Assembly (NCBI GenBank): GCA_049304095.1
Contig: JBAQNU010000010.1
Location: forward strand, 19,311 to 83,310
Reading direction: 5' to 3'
DNA: 64,000 nt
From: Candidatus Moraniibacteriota bacterium
Lineage (GTDB): Bacteria; Patescibacteriota; Minisyncoccia; Moranbacterales; UBA2206
Numbering within the stretch: position 1 is the stretch's first letter; the number at the start of each line of letters is the position of its first letter. The notes under the pieces were generated by a model, which saw nothing but the letters and a program-made list of their open reading frames with translations, had not been told where the DNA came from and made no database searches. Shown one piece after another: positions 8,990-57,774 of this stretch. The translations under genes and the position numbers were made by a program.

Positions 8990-10267
8990 ATGCAAATGTC
9001 AAGCAAATTAGCGCAAAAATTAAAATCTCTCCCCGCCTCTCCCGGTGTCTATATCTTCAAGAATAAGGCCGGGGCGGTTTTGTATGTGGGAAAAGCGACG
9101 TCGTTGAAGGATCGGGTCGGTTCGTATTTCCAGGGACGTAGTGGTTATGCCCGGCCGATTGAGATGTTTATGGACCAGGTCGCGGATATTGAAGTTCGAA
9201 AAACGGAAACAGTTTTGGAGGCATATATCTTGGAGCAAGAACTGATTAAAAAGTGGCAGCCGAAGTTTAATGCTACAGGGAAAGATGATAAATCATTTTC
9301 TTATGTTGCCATTACAAAAGAAGATTTTCCGCGTATATTATTTTTACGGAAAAGGGAAATGGATCAAGATATTGATATAAAATCAAAATTTAGTAAAATT
9401 TACGGCCCATATGTTTCCAAGAAAAATATTGAAATTGCGCTGAAAATTCTCAGAAAAATTTTTCCCTATCATGCTAAAGTGCAAAAGACAGAGAAGGGTT
9501 GTTTGGATTTTCAGATTGGACTTTGTCCGGGGCCGTATGCTGGAGCAATTTCGAAAGAGGATTATGCCAAAAATATCCGCGGGATTCGGATGATTTTGGA
9601 AGGGAAGAAAAAGACGTTGCTTGCGAAAATGAAAAAAGAAATGTTGGAATTAAGTGAGAAACAGGAATTTGAAAAAGCCGGGAAAGTGCGCAATGCGATT
9701 TTTGCGTTGCAGCATATTCAAGACATAGCACTCATCTCTGAGCGAGATGATAATTTCCAATTTCCAATTTCCAATTTCCAATTTCCAAAAAAATTCAAAA
9801 TTCAAAATTCAAAATTTCGCATCGAGGGTTATGATATTTCGAATATTTCCGGAAAATCCAGCGTGGGGTCGATGGTGGTTTTTGATAATGCAAATGGGGA
9901 AATGCAACCGAACAAAAGCCAGTATCGCAGGTTTAAAATAAAAACTGTGGAAGGTGCGAATGATACAGCGTCGATGGCGGAAGTGCTGGGGCGCAGACTT
10001 GGAAATAATTGGCCGAAACCAGATCTCATAATCTTAGATGGTGGGCAGGGGCATCTGACGGCGGTGCGACGCGTGCTCAAGAATTTTCACCTGGAAATCC
10101 CACTGCTCGCTGTCGCCAAAGGTCCAACGCGCAAAAAACTAGACCGTTATGCTTTTGGCAGTGTGCCGGAAATTTCCGACGAAATTATCGAACGCGTCCG
10201 CGACGAAGCGCATCGTTTTGCGATTACTTATCATAAGAAATTGCGGAAAAAGAGGTTTATGGAGTAG
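8990..10267 (+). CDS. uvrC: excinuclease ABC subunit C, short form lacking the C-terminal (HhH)2 domain
   Basis: GIY-YIG N-terminus (GVYIFKNKAGAVLYVGKATSLKDRV), a UVR domain (LSEKQEFEKAGKVRNAIFALQ), an RNase-H-like endonuclease domain (RIEGYDISNISG...DGGQGHL), then EAHRFAITYHKKLRKKR followed by a stop. Only 425 aa. Contains an in-frame (TTCCAA)4/(AATTCAAA)3 repeat giving NFQFPISNFQFPKKFKIQNSKF. Confidence 0.9.
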   Translation: MQMSSKLAQKLKSLPASPGVYIFKNKAGAVLYVGKATSLKDRVGSYFQGRSGYARPIEMFMDQVADIEVRKTETVLEAYILEQELIKKWQPKFNATGKDDKSFSYVAITKEDFPRILFLRKREMDQDIDIKSKFSKIYGPYVSKKNIEIALKILRKIFPYHAKVQKTEKGCLDFQIGLCPGPYAGAISKEDYAKNIRGIRMILEGKKKTLLAKMKKEMLELSEKQEFEKAGKVRNAIFALQHIQDIALISERDDNFQFPISNFQFPKKFKIQNSKFRIEGYDISNISGKSSVGSMVVFDNANGEMQPNKSQYRRFKIKTVEGANDTASMAEVLGRRLGNNWPKPDLIILDGGQGHLTAVRRVLKNFHLEIPLLAVAKGPTRKKLDRYAFGSVPEISDEIIERVRDEAHRFAITYHKKLRKKRFME

Positions 10268-10590
10268 CGCTTATTTGAAAGCGGACAGTCCGCGAGCTCG
10301 CGGACTGTCCGCTACTGACTGCCTCTTCTCCCTCCGAGAGAGGATGTCACGAGCACGTGACAGGTGAGGGTTCTCACCTATGCAGAAAAAACTAACAGTT
10401 AAGCTAAAGTGTCGCTGTTTCCAAAAGATCCCTCATCCGGCCTTCGGCCACCTTCTCCCGAAGGGAGAAGAGGATATAAATAAAATATTTGCGACGCAAA
10501 AAGACTTATATGCTAAGATAGTTTTGCGACTGGATTCCCGCCTTGCTCCACCGCTAAAGCTAATGCGGCACGCGGTCGCGGGAATGACAA
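10268..10590 (+). other. GC-rich highly structured element, a candidate ncRNA or structured 5' leader of the DUF45 gene
   Basis: In an AT-rich genome this block contains: a perfect 32-nt palindrome at 10281-10312 (GCGGACAGTCCGCGAGCTCGCGGACTGTCCGC); hairpins GTCACG-AGCA-CGTGAC (10346-10361) and GGTGAG-GGTT-CTCACC (10363-10378); CTTCTCCC-GAA-GGGAGAAG (10452-10470) nested inside a CCTC/GAGG outer stem with GGCC-UUC-GGCC; and an 8-bp stem ATTCCCGC/GCGGGAAT (10534-10585). The track ORFs over it are spurious. I could not match it to RNase P, tmRNA, SRP or 6S signatures. Confidence 0.4.
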
Positions 10591-54138: not shown

Positions 54139-54741
54139 ATGAAATATAAGGCAGTGGGTTTTGATTATGGTGGGGTTATTGCTGGCATTCCAAGTTCAGA
54201 GTTTAATCGACGAATTACAGAATTACTTGGCGTAAGCATCGAAACGTATAAAACAGTTTATTTTAGAAATAACCACTTATTAAACCACGACACACTATCA
54301 ACAGATAAATTTTGGAGCAAAGTGTTAAGTGAAATGAATAAATCCGACAAGCTTGATGATTTGTTAAAATTTCTCAAGTCACTAAATCAGCACGAAATAA
54401 ATAATGATATTTTAGAATTAGCTAGGCACTTAAAAACTCTTGGTTATAGAATTGGGATATTAAGTAATAATACGTTAGAGGGGGTGGATAAAATGAAAGA
54501 TGCTGGCTTGATGGAATTATTTGATGTTGTGGCTGTGTCTACAGAAATTGGTTTTAGTAAGCCAAATCCAAAAGCGTTTGATATCTTCATAGAAAAGCTT
54601 GATGTATCACCACAAGAGCTTGTTTTCATAGATGATACAGCGAAAAGCTTAGAATCGGCAAAAGAAATTGGTTATCAACCTGTCATATACACTGAATTGA
54701 AAAAGTTACAGAATGACTTAGGCGAGCTGGGAGTTTTATGA
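54139..54741 (+). CDS. HAD-superfamily hydrolase
   Basis: FDYGGVI (DxG motif I variant), ILSNN (motif II) and a FIDD region (motif IV). ATG 54139 preferred over TTG 54121. Confidence 0.65.
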   Translation: MKYKAVGFDYGGVIAGIPSSEFNRRITELLGVSIETYKTVYFRNNHLLNHDTLSTDKFWSKVLSEMNKSDKLDDLLKFLKSLNQHEINNDILELARHLKTLGYRIGILSNNTLEGVDKMKDAGLMELFDVVAVSTEIGFSKPNPKAFDIFIEKLDVSPQELVFIDDTAKSLESAKEIGYQPVIYTELKKLQNDLGELGVL

Positions 54742-54793
54742 TGCAAATAAGGAGTTTTGTTTCAAAAAAATCACCGAGCACTAATACATTTGC

Positions 54794-54821
54794 TTGACTA
54801 GAAGTTTTTGGGTGCTATAAT
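54794..54821 (+). promoter_or_regulatory. strong sigma70-type promoter (TTGACT-16-TGcTATAAT) upstream of the tRNA/GIY-YIG unit
   Basis: -35 at 54794-54799 and extended -10 at 54813-54821. The predicted +1 is about 22 nt before tRNA-like copy A. Confidence 0.55.
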
Positions 54822-54849
54822 AGCAAAGTTATCGAAAAATGAAAAATAT

Positions 54850-54902
54850 GCGCCTATAGCTCAGTCTGGTAGATCCGCCAGCTGGCGGACTATTAAGCAA
54901 AC
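54850..54902 (+). pseudogene. tRNA-derived 5' fragment (copy A): acceptor 5' strand + D-arm + palindromic hairpin CCGCCAGCTGGCGG replacing the 5' strand of the anticodon stem
   Basis: The first 25 nt are near-identical to tRNA-Lys (GCGCCTATAGCTCAGTCTGGTAGA). The fragment ends ...CTATTAAGCAAAC and runs directly into the SD AGGGAGGA of the GIY-YIG gene. Cannot fold as a tRNA. Confidence 0.5.
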
Positions 54903-54921
54903 AGGGAGGATAAATGTGGGT

Positions 54922-55176
54922 ATGTTCAAAACTTACGCAATTTACAATAAAGAAAAAGATACAATATACATAGGACAGACCGCTGATCTTGAAAGTAGGC
55001 TATTGAGGCATAACGGAGTACTTAGGAATAAAGAAAAATCATTTACGAGTAAAAATAGCGGAAATTGGAAATTGATTTACGAAGAAAGTTTCGAAAGCAG
55101 ACAAGATGCAATGAAAAGAGAAAAGGAATTAAAAAGTTGCCAAGGCAGAAAGTTTATTAGAAGTTTGACAAAATAA
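54922..55176 (+). CDS. GIY-YIG nuclease family protein (small URI-domain, YhbQ/COG2827-like)
   Basis: FKTYAIYNKEKDTIYIGQTADLESRLLRHNG...NWKLIYEESFESRQDAMKREKELKSCQGRKFIRSL is a full GIY-YIG motif set (GIY, YIG, Arg, Glu). SD AGGGAGGA lies 7 nt upstream. The track ORF start 54808 reads through the tRNA-like copy A and is rejected. Confidence 0.75.
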   Translation: MFKTYAIYNKEKDTIYIGQTADLESRLLRHNGVLRNKEKSFTSKNSGNWKLIYEESFESRQDAMKREKELKSCQGRKFIRSLTK

Positions 55177-55184
55177 TATATAAT

Positions 55185-55258
55185 GCGCCTATAGCTCAGT
55201 CCGGTAGAGCAGTTGCCTTTTAAGCAAACGGTCCCAGGTTCGAATCCTGGTGGGCGCA
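55185..55258 (+). tRNA. tRNA-Lys (anticodon UUU), CCA not encoded
   Basis: Folded by hand. Acceptor GCGCCTA/TGGGCGC, D-arm GCTC-AGTCCGGTA-GAGC, anticodon arm GTTGC-CTTTTAA-GCAAA (one terminal G-A mismatch), T-arm CCAGG-TTCGAAT-CCTGG, discriminator A. Confidence 0.8.
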
Positions 55259-55269
55259 CAAATAAAAAA

Positions 55270-55344
55270 CTCAGTCCGGTTGATCCGCCAGCCGGCGGAC
55301 TTTTAAGCAAACGGTCCCAGGTTCGAATCCTGGTGGGCGCACCA
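55270..55344 (+). pseudogene. tRNA-derived 3' partial copy (copy C) with hairpin CCGCCAGCCGGCGG and intact T-arm, acceptor 3' strand and encoded CCA
   Basis: Starts 11 nt after tRNA-Lys. Lacks the 5' acceptor strand. Shares the hairpin-bearing 43-nt variant segment with copy A (4 mismatches) and the 3' 35 nt with the intact tRNA. Confidence 0.5.
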
Positions 55345-55421
55345 TAGGGGATTTATCAGAATCACAAGTCTTATTAATCTCATAGATAACCCCCAATCGG
55401 GTGGTTCGAAAACCTTCTTTT
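55339..55421 (+). repeat. direct repeat R1, copy a (begins with the tRNA-like 3' GCACCA)
   Basis: 83 nt identical to 61537-61619 (GCACCATAGGGGATTTATCAGAATCACAAGTCTTATTAATCTCATAGATAACCCCCAATCGGGTGGTTCGAAAACCTTCTTTT). Confidence 0.8.
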
Positions 55422-55613
55422 TTTGGTATAAAACTCATTCAGGGGACATGAAAAGCTTTTCCCGAAGCCTCTTGCTCTTTTTCCTTTCATCCAGATGACA
55501 AGTCATGGCATTCCTTGAATTATCCCTATTCACACCAGTAGGATATTTGAGCTTTTTGTGCTACAATAAATTCATCGAAGTGGGGAATATAATAAAAAAT
55601 ATAAACCAAAAAA

Positions 55614-55652
55614 ATGAACAAGAATCTGCTCTCTCTCGAAATAGCGAACTAA
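55614..55652 (+). other. 12-codon upstream ORF (MNKNLLSLEIAN) in a leader region homologous to 57800-57910
   Basis: The leader of the KilA-N gene is about 70-75% identical to the leader of the 57940 gene. Both contain a 12-codon ORF starting MNK and a CT-rich tract. Confidence 0.3.
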
Positions 55653-55678
55653 AATTATTTTCCCATATCTAGCAAGTT

Positions 55679-56524
55679 ATGAAACAAAAAATAAATGTAA
55701 AAAATATCGAAATTGTCCTATTTCAAAAAAGTCAAGCGGACTATATTTCATTGACTGACATTGCCAAATACAAAAATGCTGAATTTCCCGCCGATGTTGT
55801 GAAAAACTGGACAAGAACAAAAAGCACGGTGGAATTTCTTGGTTTATGGGAAAGGCTGAATAATTCTAATTTTAAACTGGTCGAATTCGACGGGTTTAAA
55901 AACGAAGCGGGCAGCAATGCTTTCGTATTATCTCCTCAAAAATGGATTGAGAAAACAAATGCCATTGGCATCATTTCCAAGTCAGGCCGTTATGGCGGAA
56001 CCTATGCCCACAAGGACATTGCTTTTGAATTTGCTTCTTGGATTTCAGCCGAATTCAAGCTCTATCTCATCAAGGAATTTCAACGGCTCAAAGAAGAAGA
56101 AAATGAAAGAAAATCACTGGGCTGGGATCTGCGAAGAAATTTAGCTAAAATAAATTATCGAATTCATACCAATGCCATCAAGGAAAACTTGATTCCCGCA
56201 AAAATCAGAAAGAATCAGGAAAACATAATTTATGCCAACGAAGCCGATGTGCTGAATGTGGCGTTGTTTGGAATAACGGCTAAAGACTGGCGAGATAAAA
56301 ATCCTGGAAAAGAGGGAAATGTAAGGGACTATTCTTCAGTTGAGCAGTTAGTGTGTCTAACTAATCTGGAAAGTATGAACGCGATACTGATTAAACAAGG
56401 CATAGCACAAAAACAAAGGCTGCAAGCGTTGAATGAGATGGCAATTGATCAGATGAAAATACTTTTAGGACAAAGCAATGGGGCGATTAAGAAAGGCTCT
56501 TTAACAAATAGTGTGTTGAATTAG
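55679..56524 (+). CDS. KilA-N domain protein, C-terminus altered by IS insertion
   Basis: KilA-N hallmarks ADYISLTDIAKY...NWTRTKSTVEFL and GGTYAHKDIAFEFASWISAEFKLYLIKEF. The last 9 codons (GSLTNSVLN) are encoded by the IS left end. The pre-insertion C-terminus is reconstructed as ...AIKKLQE. Confidence 0.7.
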   Translation: MKQKINVKNIEIVLFQKSQADYISLTDIAKYKNAEFPADVVKNWTRTKSTVEFLGLWERLNNSNFKLVEFDGFKNEAGSNAFVLSPQKWIEKTNAIGIISKSGRYGGTYAHKDIAFEFASWISAEFKLYLIKEFQRLKEEENERKSLGWDLRRNLAKINYRIHTNAIKENLIPAKIRKNQENIIYANEADVLNVALFGITAKDWRDKNPGKEGNVRDYSSVEQLVCLTNLESMNAILIKQGIAQKQRLQALNEMAIDQMKILLGQSNGAIKKGSLTNSVLN

Positions 56525-57774
56525 TATTAGAAATGGAATAAAAGCGAGCGTTACTTTTGCAATATAATTATCAATATTTCTAAATCCAAAGGAAACTCTT
56601 TTAATCATCTTGATTTTTGTGTGCACCCCTTCGGTAAAAGCATTGGTGGAATAATTATCAAAGTAATTCAGAATATTTTCCTTCCAACGAAACAAAGTTT
56701 TTCCAAAGCTTTTCATATACCGAGAATGTGAATTTTCGCAAAACATAATGATCGTATTCAATTTCTTCCTGGCTTCTTTTTTATCTTTCAAACAATAAAA
56801 ATCTCGCAGTTTTTCTTTGATGAAGTAGGCTTGGTAGAGCGAGGGAAACTTTTCCAACTTTTTAAACAGCAATTCCAATTTGATTTTCTCTTTCTCATTT
56901 AGTTTCTCTTTCCCTTTAAATAGTATCTGCCGGATATGGTAGCCCTTGTTAACCATAATCGATCTGACTTCATCCAAATTTTTGTTGGCATAAGCAATGA
57001 CATGAAATTTATCCACCGTCACCTTCACTTTAGGCAACTCTCTTTTGATTGTATTGAGATAGCCTCGTTGCATATCAATGCAGACCTCAGAAATACGCTT
57101 CTGGTCGGCTTTTTGCAAGAATTCAGTTAATGTTGCCAGTCTGTCATCTTTGCCCACCATCAGCAGTTTCTTTTTGGTGATATTAGTCGCCGTCAACACC
57201 AATTTTCTTCCGCGATAGCTATGTTCATCAATACCCAGCACGAACTTTTCACCCTGCTCCTCCCAATCAATCTCTTTGAATTTCTCATGATTTTCTTGCA
57301 ATACTGCATACAAAACCGGCGGAGAAATATCGGTAGTTTGTTTCACGTAGCTCAAGCTATTCCGAGCCAGATCTTTTAAAAGTACTCTTCTGAAATTTTC
57401 TGTTGTACTTCGCTTGTCGATGCCAACCACATGTTCCATAAAAGCTTTCTTGCAATGATTGCAGTAGAACCGTCTAACCCTCAAACGCAAGATTACCTTT
57501 CGACTTTGCCATACGGAGTGCAATATCTTTCTGGACTTGTACTGGTGAACCCTCTTGACCGAACAGGTGCAGTGCGGACAGATACAATACTTGCGGGGGT
57601 TTCTAACTTTAACGGTAACTTCCTCATCTGTTATCTCCCAGCCGTCAACCCAGACATTTTGCAAATTTAGCAGTTTTTTGATATCTTGTTTCATAGGAGT
57701 GGTGTGAATTTATGTTTAAGCGCTTAAATTCTACCACTTCTTTAGTTATCCACCACACTAATTATTATAGAGCC
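56495..57774 (-). mobile_element. ISL3-family insertion sequence (about 1.28 kb) with 8-bp target-site duplication TTAAGAAA
   Basis: Terminal inverted repeats GGCTCTTTAACAAATAGTGTG (56495-) and the reverse complement of CACACTAATTATTATAGAGCC (-57774). Identical flanking TTAAGAAA at 56487-56494 and 57775-57782. Confidence 0.8.
56501..57694 (-). CDS. ISL3-family DDE transposase
   Basis: N-terminal zinc-finger-like CxxC...CxxC (CICPHCTC ... CNHCKK), HTH region, and the DDE core typical of ISL3 (GIDEHSYRG..., VCIDMQRGY...). Confidence 0.85.
   Translation of the reverse strand: MKQDIKKLLNLQNVWVDGWEITDEEVTVKVRNPRKYCICPHCTCSVKRVHQYKSRKILHSVWQSRKVILRLRVRRFYCNHCKKAFMEHVVGIDKRSTTENFRRVLLKDLARNSLSYVKQTTDISPPVLYAVLQENHEKFKEIDWEEQGEKFVLGIDEHSYRGRKLVLTATNITKKKLLMVGKDDRLATLTEFLQKADQKRISEVCIDMQRGYLNTIKRELPKVKVTVDKFHVIAYANKNLDEVRSIMVNKGYHIRQILFKGKEKLNEKEKIKLELLFKKLEKFPSLYQAYFIKEKLRDFYCLKDKKEARKKLNTIIMFCENSHSRYMKSFGKTLFRWKENILNYFDNYSTNAFTEGVHTKIKMIKRVSFGFRNIDNYIAKVTLAFIPFLILIQHTIC

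Follow-up and report, generated by a model that had tools for sequence, protein, structure and literature searches.

A probable selfish GIY-YIG nuclease gene and its associated palindrome in a tRNA-Lys transcription unit of a Moranbacterales bacterium

Introduction

Among the described systems closest to the subject of this report, the GIY-YIG enzyme SegB of phages T4 and T6 cuts inside tRNA genes and drives a recombination-dependent tandem amplification of tRNA segments (PMC2330249; PMC13096335), and GIY-YIG genes have been reported in non-intron insertions of rRNA genes in Patescibacteria (PMC11270868). Here we analyze a 64,000-nt stretch of DNA from a Candidatus Moraniibacteriota bacterium (Patescibacteriota, Moranbacterales; GenBank assembly GCA_049304095.1, contig JBAQNU010000010.1, positions 19,311 to 83,310 of the forward strand), hereafter the window, in which a gene for a stand-alone GIY-YIG nuclease of 84 residues lies between a partial and an intact tRNA-Lys(UUU) and in which a 16-nt GC-rich palindrome replaces part of each of two partial tRNA copies. 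Comparison with related loci makes it probable that this locus is a selfish GIY-YIG insertion in the tRNA-Lys(UUU) transcription unit, with the hairpin of the palindrome as a functional part. A literature search found no description of this module or of the palindrome; the nearest accounts are the rRNA gene insertions (PMC11270868) and the work on SegB.

Patescibacteria are ultra-small bacteria. Stand-alone GIY-YIG proteins of the UPF0213 type are widespread, and to our knowledge neither a cellular role nor a genomic syntax has been established for them. In the mitochondria of Allomyces, a mobile GIY-YIG open reading frame (ORF) is found at the 3′ end of atp6, where the insertion replaces part of the target and the displaced native part persists as a pseudo-copy. 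GC-rich palindromes that spread in AT-rich genomes, in frame in protein-coding genes and also in RNA genes, are exemplified by the Rickettsia palindromic elements and the GC clusters of yeast mitochondria; we know of no dedicated nuclease gene for either.

Results

Organization of the tRNA-Lys locus

The locus comprises a promoter, a partial tRNA-Lys (copy A), the nuclease gene, an intact tRNA-Lys(UUU) (copy B), and a second partial tRNA-Lys (copy C), in that order (coordinates in Table 1). Copy A, which starts 28 nt beyond the end of the promoter, is composed of tRNA-Lys positions 1–24, the hairpin, and positions 33–45 (the anticodon loop and the 3′ strand of the anticodon stem), and copy C of positions 11–24, the hairpin, positions 33–76, and CCA. 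The palindrome, T-CCGCC-N4-GGCGG-A, replaces tRNA positions ∼25–32, the 5′ strand of the anticodon stem, in both copies. Of the resident gene, the promoter and the initial 24 nt of the tRNA lead into copy A, and the 3′ end with its CCA corresponds to copy C, with the ORF and copy B between them. The promoter agrees with the consensus at 11 of 12 positions, has the additional TG, and is the top-scoring site of the region, and an in-frame GTG at 54916 precedes the ATG of the nuclease ORF, which is present in a single copy in the window. A first-pass annotation, made from the letters of the DNA and without database searches, had located the promoter, the three tRNA copies, the Shine-Dalgarno sequence, the ORF, and both hairpins where they are found here; the gap between stop codon and tRNA, which it gave as 9 nt, measures 8 nt.

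Copy B is the sole tRNA at the locus that is accepted by ARAGORN and Rfam. Copies A and C are called by neither, in agreement with the earlier statement that they cannot fold as tRNAs, and in the predicted fold of copy A the hairpin forms and the cloverleaf does not. A repeat finder aligned A with C over 43 nt at 91% identity, which is the shared segment that had been noted before, B with C over 43 nt at 100%, and A with B over 26 nt at 96%. The three copies of the window are too alike to tell their origin; the D-loop contains a T in A and a C in B and C, and the CCA, encoded on copy C only, points the same way as this difference. An Rfam search of 54500–55700 at E ≤ 10 matched the intact tRNA alone and returned no intron, tRNA-like element, or described leader motif. 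Within the window, the palindrome gives 6 strand-matches vs 0.17 expected, a count reached by none of 100 shuffles.

Two other architectures were considered and rejected. For a tRNA group I intron with an encoded endonuclease, the same search gave no intron match and copy B is uninterrupted. For a split or permuted tRNA, A and C overlap over 43 nt and both lack positions 25–32, and the intact copy B is present. The split or intron-containing tRNA, which the first-pass annotation had named as a finding that would overturn its own interpretation, is therefore not what the locus contains.

Insertion states at an orthologous site

The orthologous site was traced through homologs of a 166-aa neighbor gene, the contigs of which were read; L-numbers are the labels of the relative loci or contigs compared in this analysis. 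The module follows the same 166-aa gene in L001, L004/L006, and L007, which are full sites. L094, from the same sample as L001, is an empty site, in which the same promoter and leader precede a bare tRNA-Lys(UUU) identical to copy B of L001, with no ORF, hairpin, or partial copy; the identity of its neighbor protein is 80%, as it is in L004 and L007. In L098, only the last nuclease codons (ELKSFKGREFIRSLITN-stop), a hairpin-bearing A′ copy, and the tRNA remain, and in L096 the ORF is gone and the tRNA is preceded by a degenerate A-like copy in which other GC palindromes abound. The comparison of orthologous tRNA-Lys sites that had been suggested earlier has thus yielded sites both with and without the GIY-YIG and hairpin module. 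A single site found in empty, full, decayed, and remnant states follows the life cycle expected of a selfish endonuclease gene and argues against a conserved host operon; it also displays the presence/absence polymorphism and degenerate copies of a free-standing homing gene.

A promoter of the form TTGAC...TATAAT/TATACT-(A/G)GCAAAGTT is common to L001, L004, L007, L096, and the empty L094, and has diverged in L098 (AGCGAAAGG); the promoter of the window is homologous to that of the bare tRNA-Lys gene in relatives. No synteny between the window and L001 was found beyond this ∼60-nt promoter, so that transposition cannot be demonstrated from the window by itself. Compared with the empty site, the gains of L001 are a segment consisting of the hairpin, tRNA positions 32–43, the leader, the ORF, the spacer, and tRNA positions −2 to 23, inserted at tRNA position 23/24, as well as the C copies 3′ of the tRNA.

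Differences among A, B, and C serve as a test of origin in L072 and L013 alone, and the segment 3′ of the hairpin is mixed. In L072, the 5′ acceptor strand of A (GGGCCCG) pairs with the 3′ acceptor strand of C (CGGGCTC), unlike the strands of B (GGGCGGC/GCCGCTC), indicating that the segment running from hairpin through ORF and B to hairpin interrupts an older tRNA gene at this locus. The hairpins of L072 lie exactly at the borders of the insert, and segment 11–23 of its copy C is of the B type. The proposal of the first-pass annotation that a mobile GIY-YIG element brings its own replacement tRNA gains from the empty orthologous site, from the decayed and remnant relatives, and from the A and C of L072 as halves of a tRNA other than B; the classical immunity conferred by destruction of the target upon insertion is left in doubt by copy B, which equals the tRNA of the empty site.

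Two further observations concern individual sites. In L004, an older and heavily degraded 5′ tRNA copy with a variant hairpin (TCCCGCCAGGGCGGGA) lies between the promoter and A (2830–2890; the same in L006), and the acceptor sequence of A and A′ is GCGCTCA vs GCGCCTA in B; the degraded copy and the acceptor mismatch suggest repeated invasion of one site. In L098, the 3′ end of the tRNA borders directly on a gene for a large serine recombinase.

Distribution of the module

A family scan of one genome per species returned at least 532 loci encoding a relative of the nuclease, the best 80 of which were examined. Nearly all of these 80 belong to Patescibacteria, spread over many classes, and two to Bacteroidota; the 79 close cluster representatives of the protein carry, where a name is given, the names Moranbacteria, Parcubacteria, or Patescibacteria. 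Of 83 non-redundant loci, 76 have a perfect 6-bp GC-rich hairpin that starts with T and lies at most 120 nt upstream or 60 nt downstream of the gene, the remainder having mostly imperfect variants, sequence gaps, or contig ends, and the exact TCCGCC/GGCGGA pair occurs upstream of the gene in 59 of 82. An intact, co-oriented tRNA is directly adjacent in 62 loci (23 Lys-UUU, 18 Lys-CUU, 19 Asn-GUU, 1 His, and 1 Arg), and the sequence flanking the hairpin on either side is a partial copy of that neighboring tRNA. The hairpin replaces about tRNA positions 24–31 in the Lys loci and is situated within the D-loop or in place of the D-arm in the Asn loci; some C copies contain extra hairpins in place of the 5′ strand of the T-stem.

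Two layouts recur, A-ORF-tRNA-(C)n and (A)n-tRNA-ORF-C, and in both the nuclease gene has an intact tRNA on one side and a hairpin-bearing partial copy on the other. Partial copies often form tandem arrays (L001, L007, L013, L029, and L031), and the closest relatives of the window differ from one another (A-ORF-B-C-C in L001, A-ORF-A′-B-C-C in L007, and A-ORF-A′-B in L004), which implies that partial copies turn over quickly while gene and hairpin persist. The gene tree separates cleanly into an Asn-associated and a Lys-associated clade, with Lys-UUU and Lys-CUU intermixed in the latter, as would be expected if movement depends on the similarity of tRNA genes. Copy A is unlike copy B in L004, L035, L051, and L055, which fits transfer between lineages. 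A scan of viral contigs for the family returned 7 distant relatives only, so the element is not typically phage-borne. A group I intron (Rfam RF00028) resides in the anticodon loop of tRNA-Asn(GUU) in L079 (2784–3025, 91.9 bits) and L085 (2766–2998, 65.3 bits), with the nuclease gene outside the intron in both.

Several details of these loci are recorded here as observations. The stop codon of the nuclease is formed by U8-A9-G10 of the downstream tRNA in many loci (e.g., L013, L016, L028, and L072), so that cleavage by RNase P would yield a non-stop mRNA, and in the tRNA-ORF-C layout the ATG directly abuts the 3′ end of the tRNA (L029 and L073). In the A copies of Lys(UUU) modules, the T-run of the anticodon is often broken (CTATT or CATTT) and most C copies retain CTTTT (compare 54890–54896 with 55300–55306 in the window; also L001, L005, L007, L009, L022, L052, and L067); a hairpin followed by a T-run would look like an intrinsic terminator ahead of the nuclease gene. 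In the Bacteroidota loci L074 and L075 (Saprospiraceae and Flammeovirgaceae bins), the module hairpin and the gene family are accompanied by partial copies of tRNA-Met; provided that the bins are correct, the pair of hairpin and gene thus apparently crosses phyla.

Conservation and dispersal of the palindrome

The hairpin is kept beside the gene across phyla, and other non-tRNA sequence has diverged. Stem variants across loci include CCGTC/GACGG, CCGGC/GCCGG, TCGCC/GGCGA, and CCCGCC/GGCGGG, and the loop drifts; the A and C hairpins of a single locus share the same stem variant and differ in their loops (L062 and L072). Changes on both sides are seen in 4 of 6 stem pairs, and 99.3% of cells are paired, values reached by none of 500 shuffles, with the proviso that some stem variants were picked by a search that favors pairing, although their placement between the same tRNA flanks is homologous. 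As read from the alignment, such two-sided changes would be compatible with a hairpin or with a palindrome that is bound by a dimer. The density of the palindrome is 1.07/kb near the nuclease gene vs 0.021/kb elsewhere in the same loci, an enrichment of ∼50-fold.

An exact-match scan of metagenome contigs with the 16-mer found at least 120 loci (124 matches listed), and 82 of the 120 listed are of low GC content (<46% G+C), where a GC-rich 16-mer should be very rare. None of the 124 listed matches has a GIY-YIG gene within ∼100 nt, and a profile search of the 16-mer loci for hidden GIY-YIG genes identified a UPF0213-type gene in L147 only. This scarcity led us to reinterpret the hairpin from a part of the locus to a dispersed element; the original description of a local rebuild of the anticodon stem does not hold for a 16-nt palindrome that is dispersed and also resides inside protein genes. 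Copy number is approximately one per 50–130 kb.

Many copies of the 16-mer are located in frame within long ORFs, where they are read as PPAGG, SASWR, or RQLA. The host ORFs recognized by sequence motifs encode ribosomal protein L6, a RecG-like helicase, topoisomerase I, a class I aminoacyl-tRNA synthetase, TsaD, and FemAB, among others. In the L6 case, which belongs to Patescibacteria, the sequence VKIN-PPAGG-EKIG stands against VKIN, a single Ala, and QDAG in the closest homologs (82% identical), a lineage-specific net gain of 12 nt or 4 aa. The flanks of the 16-mer rarely have T at −1 or A at +1, and flanking direct repeats of at least 2 nt (2–5 nt long) are present in 25 of 84 cases, compared with 7.8 ± 2.6 in shuffles (maximum 19 in 2000). 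About 8% of the listed matches fall in pseudo-tRNA copies beside an intact tRNA-Gln, Gly, Asn, Ile, or Val (L145, L147, L154, L181, L213, and L150); most of these have no nuclease gene in the examined stretch, and in L147 a UPF0213-type GIY-YIG gene follows the pseudo-copy. Judged from its sequence contexts, the hairpin appears to be a low-copy mobile element in its own right.

In-frame examples are L137:487, L208:2101, L130:2527, and L104:2687 among the metagenome loci (L100–L219), and L005:440. A second family of GC-rich palindromes (CCTGCCTGCCGGCAGGCAGG and variants) is present in pseudo-tRNA copies and elsewhere (L011, L012, L015, L027, L061, L108, and L128). In the window itself, a perfect 32-nt palindrome (GCGGACAG-TCCGCGAGCTCGCGGA-CTGTCCGC) is situated at 10281–10312, just past an ORF that ends at 10267; at its core, CCGCG/CGCGG represents a compensatory variant of the hairpin in the module.

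The nuclease

The protein matches the Pfam GIY-YIG domain (PF01541) with E = 2.5e-15. An alignment of 43 homologs, which indicates purifying selection on the family, shows Tyr5, Tyr16, and Gly18 of the GIY-YIG motifs, together with His30 and Glu67, to be invariant, and Arg26 and Asn31 nearly so. The AlphaFold2 model (predicted local distance difference test score 95) matches GIY-YIG domains, and motifs, catalytic residues, and fold concur in placing the protein in the superfamily. The closest solved proteins by sequence are UPF0213 members EF2693 and BH0048 (1YWL and 1ZG2; E = 1e-7 and 3e-7), followed by the catalytic domain of I-TevI and by SLX1. Foldseek ranks BH0048 first, and places BH0048, SLX1 nuclease domains, and plant HIGLE ahead of I-TevI and UvrC, with a query-normalized TM-score of 0.65–0.71 for the SLX1/HIGLE nuclease domains. 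With a single GIY-YIG domain and a length within the range of ∼80–100 aa, the protein has the form of a UPF0213 member, of which an identity of ∼25% makes it a distant subfamily.

Searches against PADLOC for defense systems and PHROGs for phage proteins returned weak ‘homing endonuclease’ matches only. The first-pass annotation had offered a homing-type element as one of two options: the enzyme is a GIY-YIG nuclease, but one that consists of the bare catalytic domain, nearest to SLX1 and UPF0213, and lacks both the I-TevI-type DNA-binding domain and any other with which homing endonucleases recognize a long target.

Other features of the window

The module is followed immediately, at 55679–57694, by genes for a KilA-N domain protein and an ISL3-family transposase (minus strand); mobile-element genes in this position suggest that the tRNA-Lys locus serves mobile DNA as a general landing zone. 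A terminator scan downstream of copy C found none; a weak hairpin (GGTT-CGAA-AACC) with a T-run is visible at 55403–55424.

Table 1. Coordinates of the features of the tRNA-Lys locus in the window
Feature	Start	End	Strand	Details
Promoter, sigma-70 type	54794	54821	+	TTGACT (54794–54799), 16 nt, TG-n-TATAAT, then conserved AGCAAAGTT
Copy A, non-functional partial tRNA	54850	54902	+	53 nt; left insert border
Hairpin/palindrome in A	54874	54889	.	TCCGCCAGCTGGCGGA, in place of GCAGTTGC of the tRNA
Shine-Dalgarno sequence	54903	54910	+	AGGGAGGA, 11 nt ahead of ATG; by sequence inspection
Stand-alone GIY-YIG nuclease gene, UPF0213/SLX1-like	54922	55176	+	84 aa; ATG start
Copy B, intact tRNA-Lys(UUU)	55185	55258	+	No encoded CCA; ARAGORN; Rfam tRNA 70.2 bits
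Spacer, A-rich	55260	55269	+	AAATAAAAAA, 10 nt, conserved with L001 and L007
Copy C, non-functional partial tRNA	55270	55344	+	Right insert border; encoded CCA
Hairpin in C	55284	55299	.	TCCGCCAGCCGGCGGA; stem as in A, one loop change (loop AGCC)

Discussion

The evidence is best accommodated by a selfish GIY-YIG insertion in the tRNA-Lys(UUU) transcription unit that includes the hairpin as a functional part, a reading we hold to be probable. In such an element, the whole array would be transcribed as one RNA from the tRNA promoter, copy B would be freed by RNase P and 3′ processing, and the ORF would be translated from its own ribosome-binding site. The nuclease may recognize the palindrome either in extruded form (hairpin or cruciform) or, acting as a dimer, in the duplex, and break the DNA there; that the hairpin is in fact what it cuts we put at slightly below an even chance. 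Repair of the break through the tRNA-homologous flanks would copy the element into other tRNA-Lys and tRNA-Asn genes and leave tandem partial copies; for phage tRNA segments, such an outcome has been seen experimentally with SegB (PMC13096335). Because B would be the only working tRNA, a deletion between A and C would be lethal, which would stabilize the element, and the hairpin may add to this stability by trimming the homology between A and B to about 24 nt.

A number of points weigh against this reading. The palindrome is a putative substrate of the nuclease, and the 84-aa domain is without an obvious DNA-binding module. In the occupied allele, A and C lack positions 25–32 and the sequence of B is exactly that of the tRNA in the empty site L094; since B equals the naive target, an occupied allele would not be immune if the target is the tRNA gene, a difficulty shared by any homing model. 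Hairpin and gene are separated by tRNA-derived sequence of variable length and do not form one contiguous foreign piece. Only 3 of the 120 listed metagenome loci contain a GIY-YIG gene anywhere in the examined stretch, and a hairpin that lies mostly far from such genes could be mobilized by something else. The differing contexts of the window and L001 could reflect genome rearrangement and not transposition, and the covariation of the stem carries the proviso on variant selection given above.

Weighed against these same data, an enzyme that acts like SegB, cutting intact tRNA genes at a conserved motif so that repair generates the partial copies, with the palindromes as unrelated selfish passengers that the nuclease does not recognize, would account for the dispersed hairpins, most of which are far from any GIY-YIG gene, and for the hairpin-bearing pseudo-copies beside tRNA-Gln, Asn, Ile, and Val that have no nuclease gene in the examined stretch; SegB itself cleaves in tRNA genes and causes segmental amplification (PMC13096335). 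We nevertheless consider this principal rival unlikely, as passengers would hardly be expected near almost every copy of the gene (≤120 nt upstream or ≤60 nt downstream), enriched 50-fold locally, at the exact borders of the L072 insert, and with a stem that is conserved or covarying across phyla while the adjoining non-tRNA sequence has diverged completely, and the fold is nearest to those of structure-specific nucleases. Alternatively, the locus could be a domesticated host operon, in which the nuclease serves the cell, for instance in DNA repair or the maintenance of tRNA genes, and the tRNA-like hairpin leader controls expression or processing of its mRNA. Purifying selection on the family, a gene that is always co-oriented and apparently co-transcribed with the tRNA from the tRNA promoter, and the stop codon inside the tRNA in many loci, which couples translation to tRNA processing, all fit such an operon. 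The occurrence, among equally related genomes, of empty, decayed, and remnant versions of one site does not, nor do the highly variable architecture with its arrays of partial copies, the hairpin as a plain insertion in protein-coding genes, or copy A, which neither ARAGORN nor Rfam finds tRNA-like, and these make the host operon improbable. A tRNA-like leader for mRNA processing, which the first-pass annotation had offered as its second interpretation, also found no positive support, A being tRNA-like to no detector; the gene does depend on the tRNA promoter.

Both flanks of the hairpin match the local tRNA, the hairpin is conserved in the 5′ untranslated region of the nuclease gene in the manner of the guide RNAs of some mobile elements, and some C copies have all 5′ strands of the tRNA helices replaced by hairpins. 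These features recall an RNA-guided GIY-YIG system, with A and C as functional RNAs in which the hairpin is a handle for the protein and the tRNA-sense flanks direct the nuclease to tRNA genes. The tRNA-derived flanks are, however, very variable in length and short in the Asn loci, A is unlike B in L055, L035, and L072, the same hairpin occurs with unrelated flanks inside genes, and the 84 aa revealed neither structural nor sequence features of an RNA-binding protein, so that we regard RNA guidance as very improbable. There is scarcely any chance that A and C are attachment-site (att) duplications left by an integrase-driven island at the tRNA gene, with the hairpin incidental: the mobile-element genes after the module (KilA-N and ISL3, described above) and the serine recombinase that abuts the tRNA in L098 would be in keeping with an island, but C begins 10 nt past B and not at the far end of one, A is upstream of the tRNA, where att duplications are not made, most loci have no integrase, and the A-ORF-B-C layout is found also in loci without integrase or transposase.

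The selfish insertion could also be the core of something larger. The GIY-YIG nuclease and the 16-nt palindrome may be a two-component mobile system with the logic of the repetitive extragenic palindromic (REP) sequences and their REP-associated tyrosine transposases (RAYTs) and a different enzyme, in which the tRNA-embedded copy is the autonomous master; we think this doubtful at present. If it were true, the nuclease would cut hairpin or cruciform DNA, and the bare palindrome would be pasted genome-wide, in frame even in essential genes, as the smallest mobile DNA known and by a new transposition chemistry.

A large subfamily of the UPF0213 type is here given a repeatable syntax (a tRNA gene, partial copies, and one conserved hairpin) and selfish behavior, which together lead to a testable substrate. 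By breaking the resident tRNA gene and supplying the sole working copy, such an element would have a way to be hard to lose. The hairpin accounts for some lineage-specific short insertions in the housekeeping proteins of Patescibacteria and is a candidate for unusually small mobile DNA. In practical terms, the repeats cause metagenome assemblies to break off at tRNA loci (L002, L003, and L086 are contigs that end within the module) and yield pseudo-tRNA fragments that annotation should not call genes.

None of the systems compared unites a domain-only GIY-YIG protein, obligatory embedding in tRNA genes with hairpin-substituted partial tRNAs, and a dispersed 16-nt palindrome. SegB and other free-standing GIY-YIG homing endonucleases resemble the module in that the nuclease gene lies among tRNA genes and is present or absent between relatives, and the amplification that SegB causes parallels the arrays of A and C; SegB, however, has a C-terminal DNA-binding part, whereas the window protein is a catalytic domain only, and the family of the window is chromosomal in Patescibacteria, rare in viral contigs, and bracketed by a palindrome and hairpin-substituted partial tRNAs. 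The window protein is nearer to UPF0213 and SLX1 than to I-TevI by both sequence and fold. The stand-alone GIY-YIG proteins known as UPF0213, YhbQ, or YazA (PDB 1ZG2 and 1YWL) share its size and domain and provide its best sequence and fold matches, but identity is only about 25%, and our search of the literature found no link of these proteins to tRNA genes or to a cognate palindrome. SLX1 and HIGLE share the fold of the nuclease domain, and their cleavage of branched and stem-loop DNA is the type of activity that we propose for the hairpin; they differ in being eukaryotic, larger, equipped with a RING or zinc domain and partner proteins, and not mobile.

Among palindromic elements, REP sequences and RAYTs offer the same combination of a dispersed short palindrome and a nuclease gene flanked by copies of it. 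RAYTs, however, are HUH/Y1 enzymes and the window enzyme is a GIY-YIG protein with no HUH/Y1 membership, and REPs are extragenic and far more numerous, whereas the window palindrome is 16 nt long, low-copy, and also intragenic. The Rickettsia and yeast elements are 30–150 nt long and belong to unrelated hosts, and the palindrome of the window is shorter and tightly tied to one nuclease family. The mobile ORF of Allomyces atp6 differs in that its target is an organellar protein gene and that its borders carry no hairpins; like the module described here, it is a free-standing GIY-YIG gene that supplies a replacement for part of its target and leaves a pseudo-copy behind.

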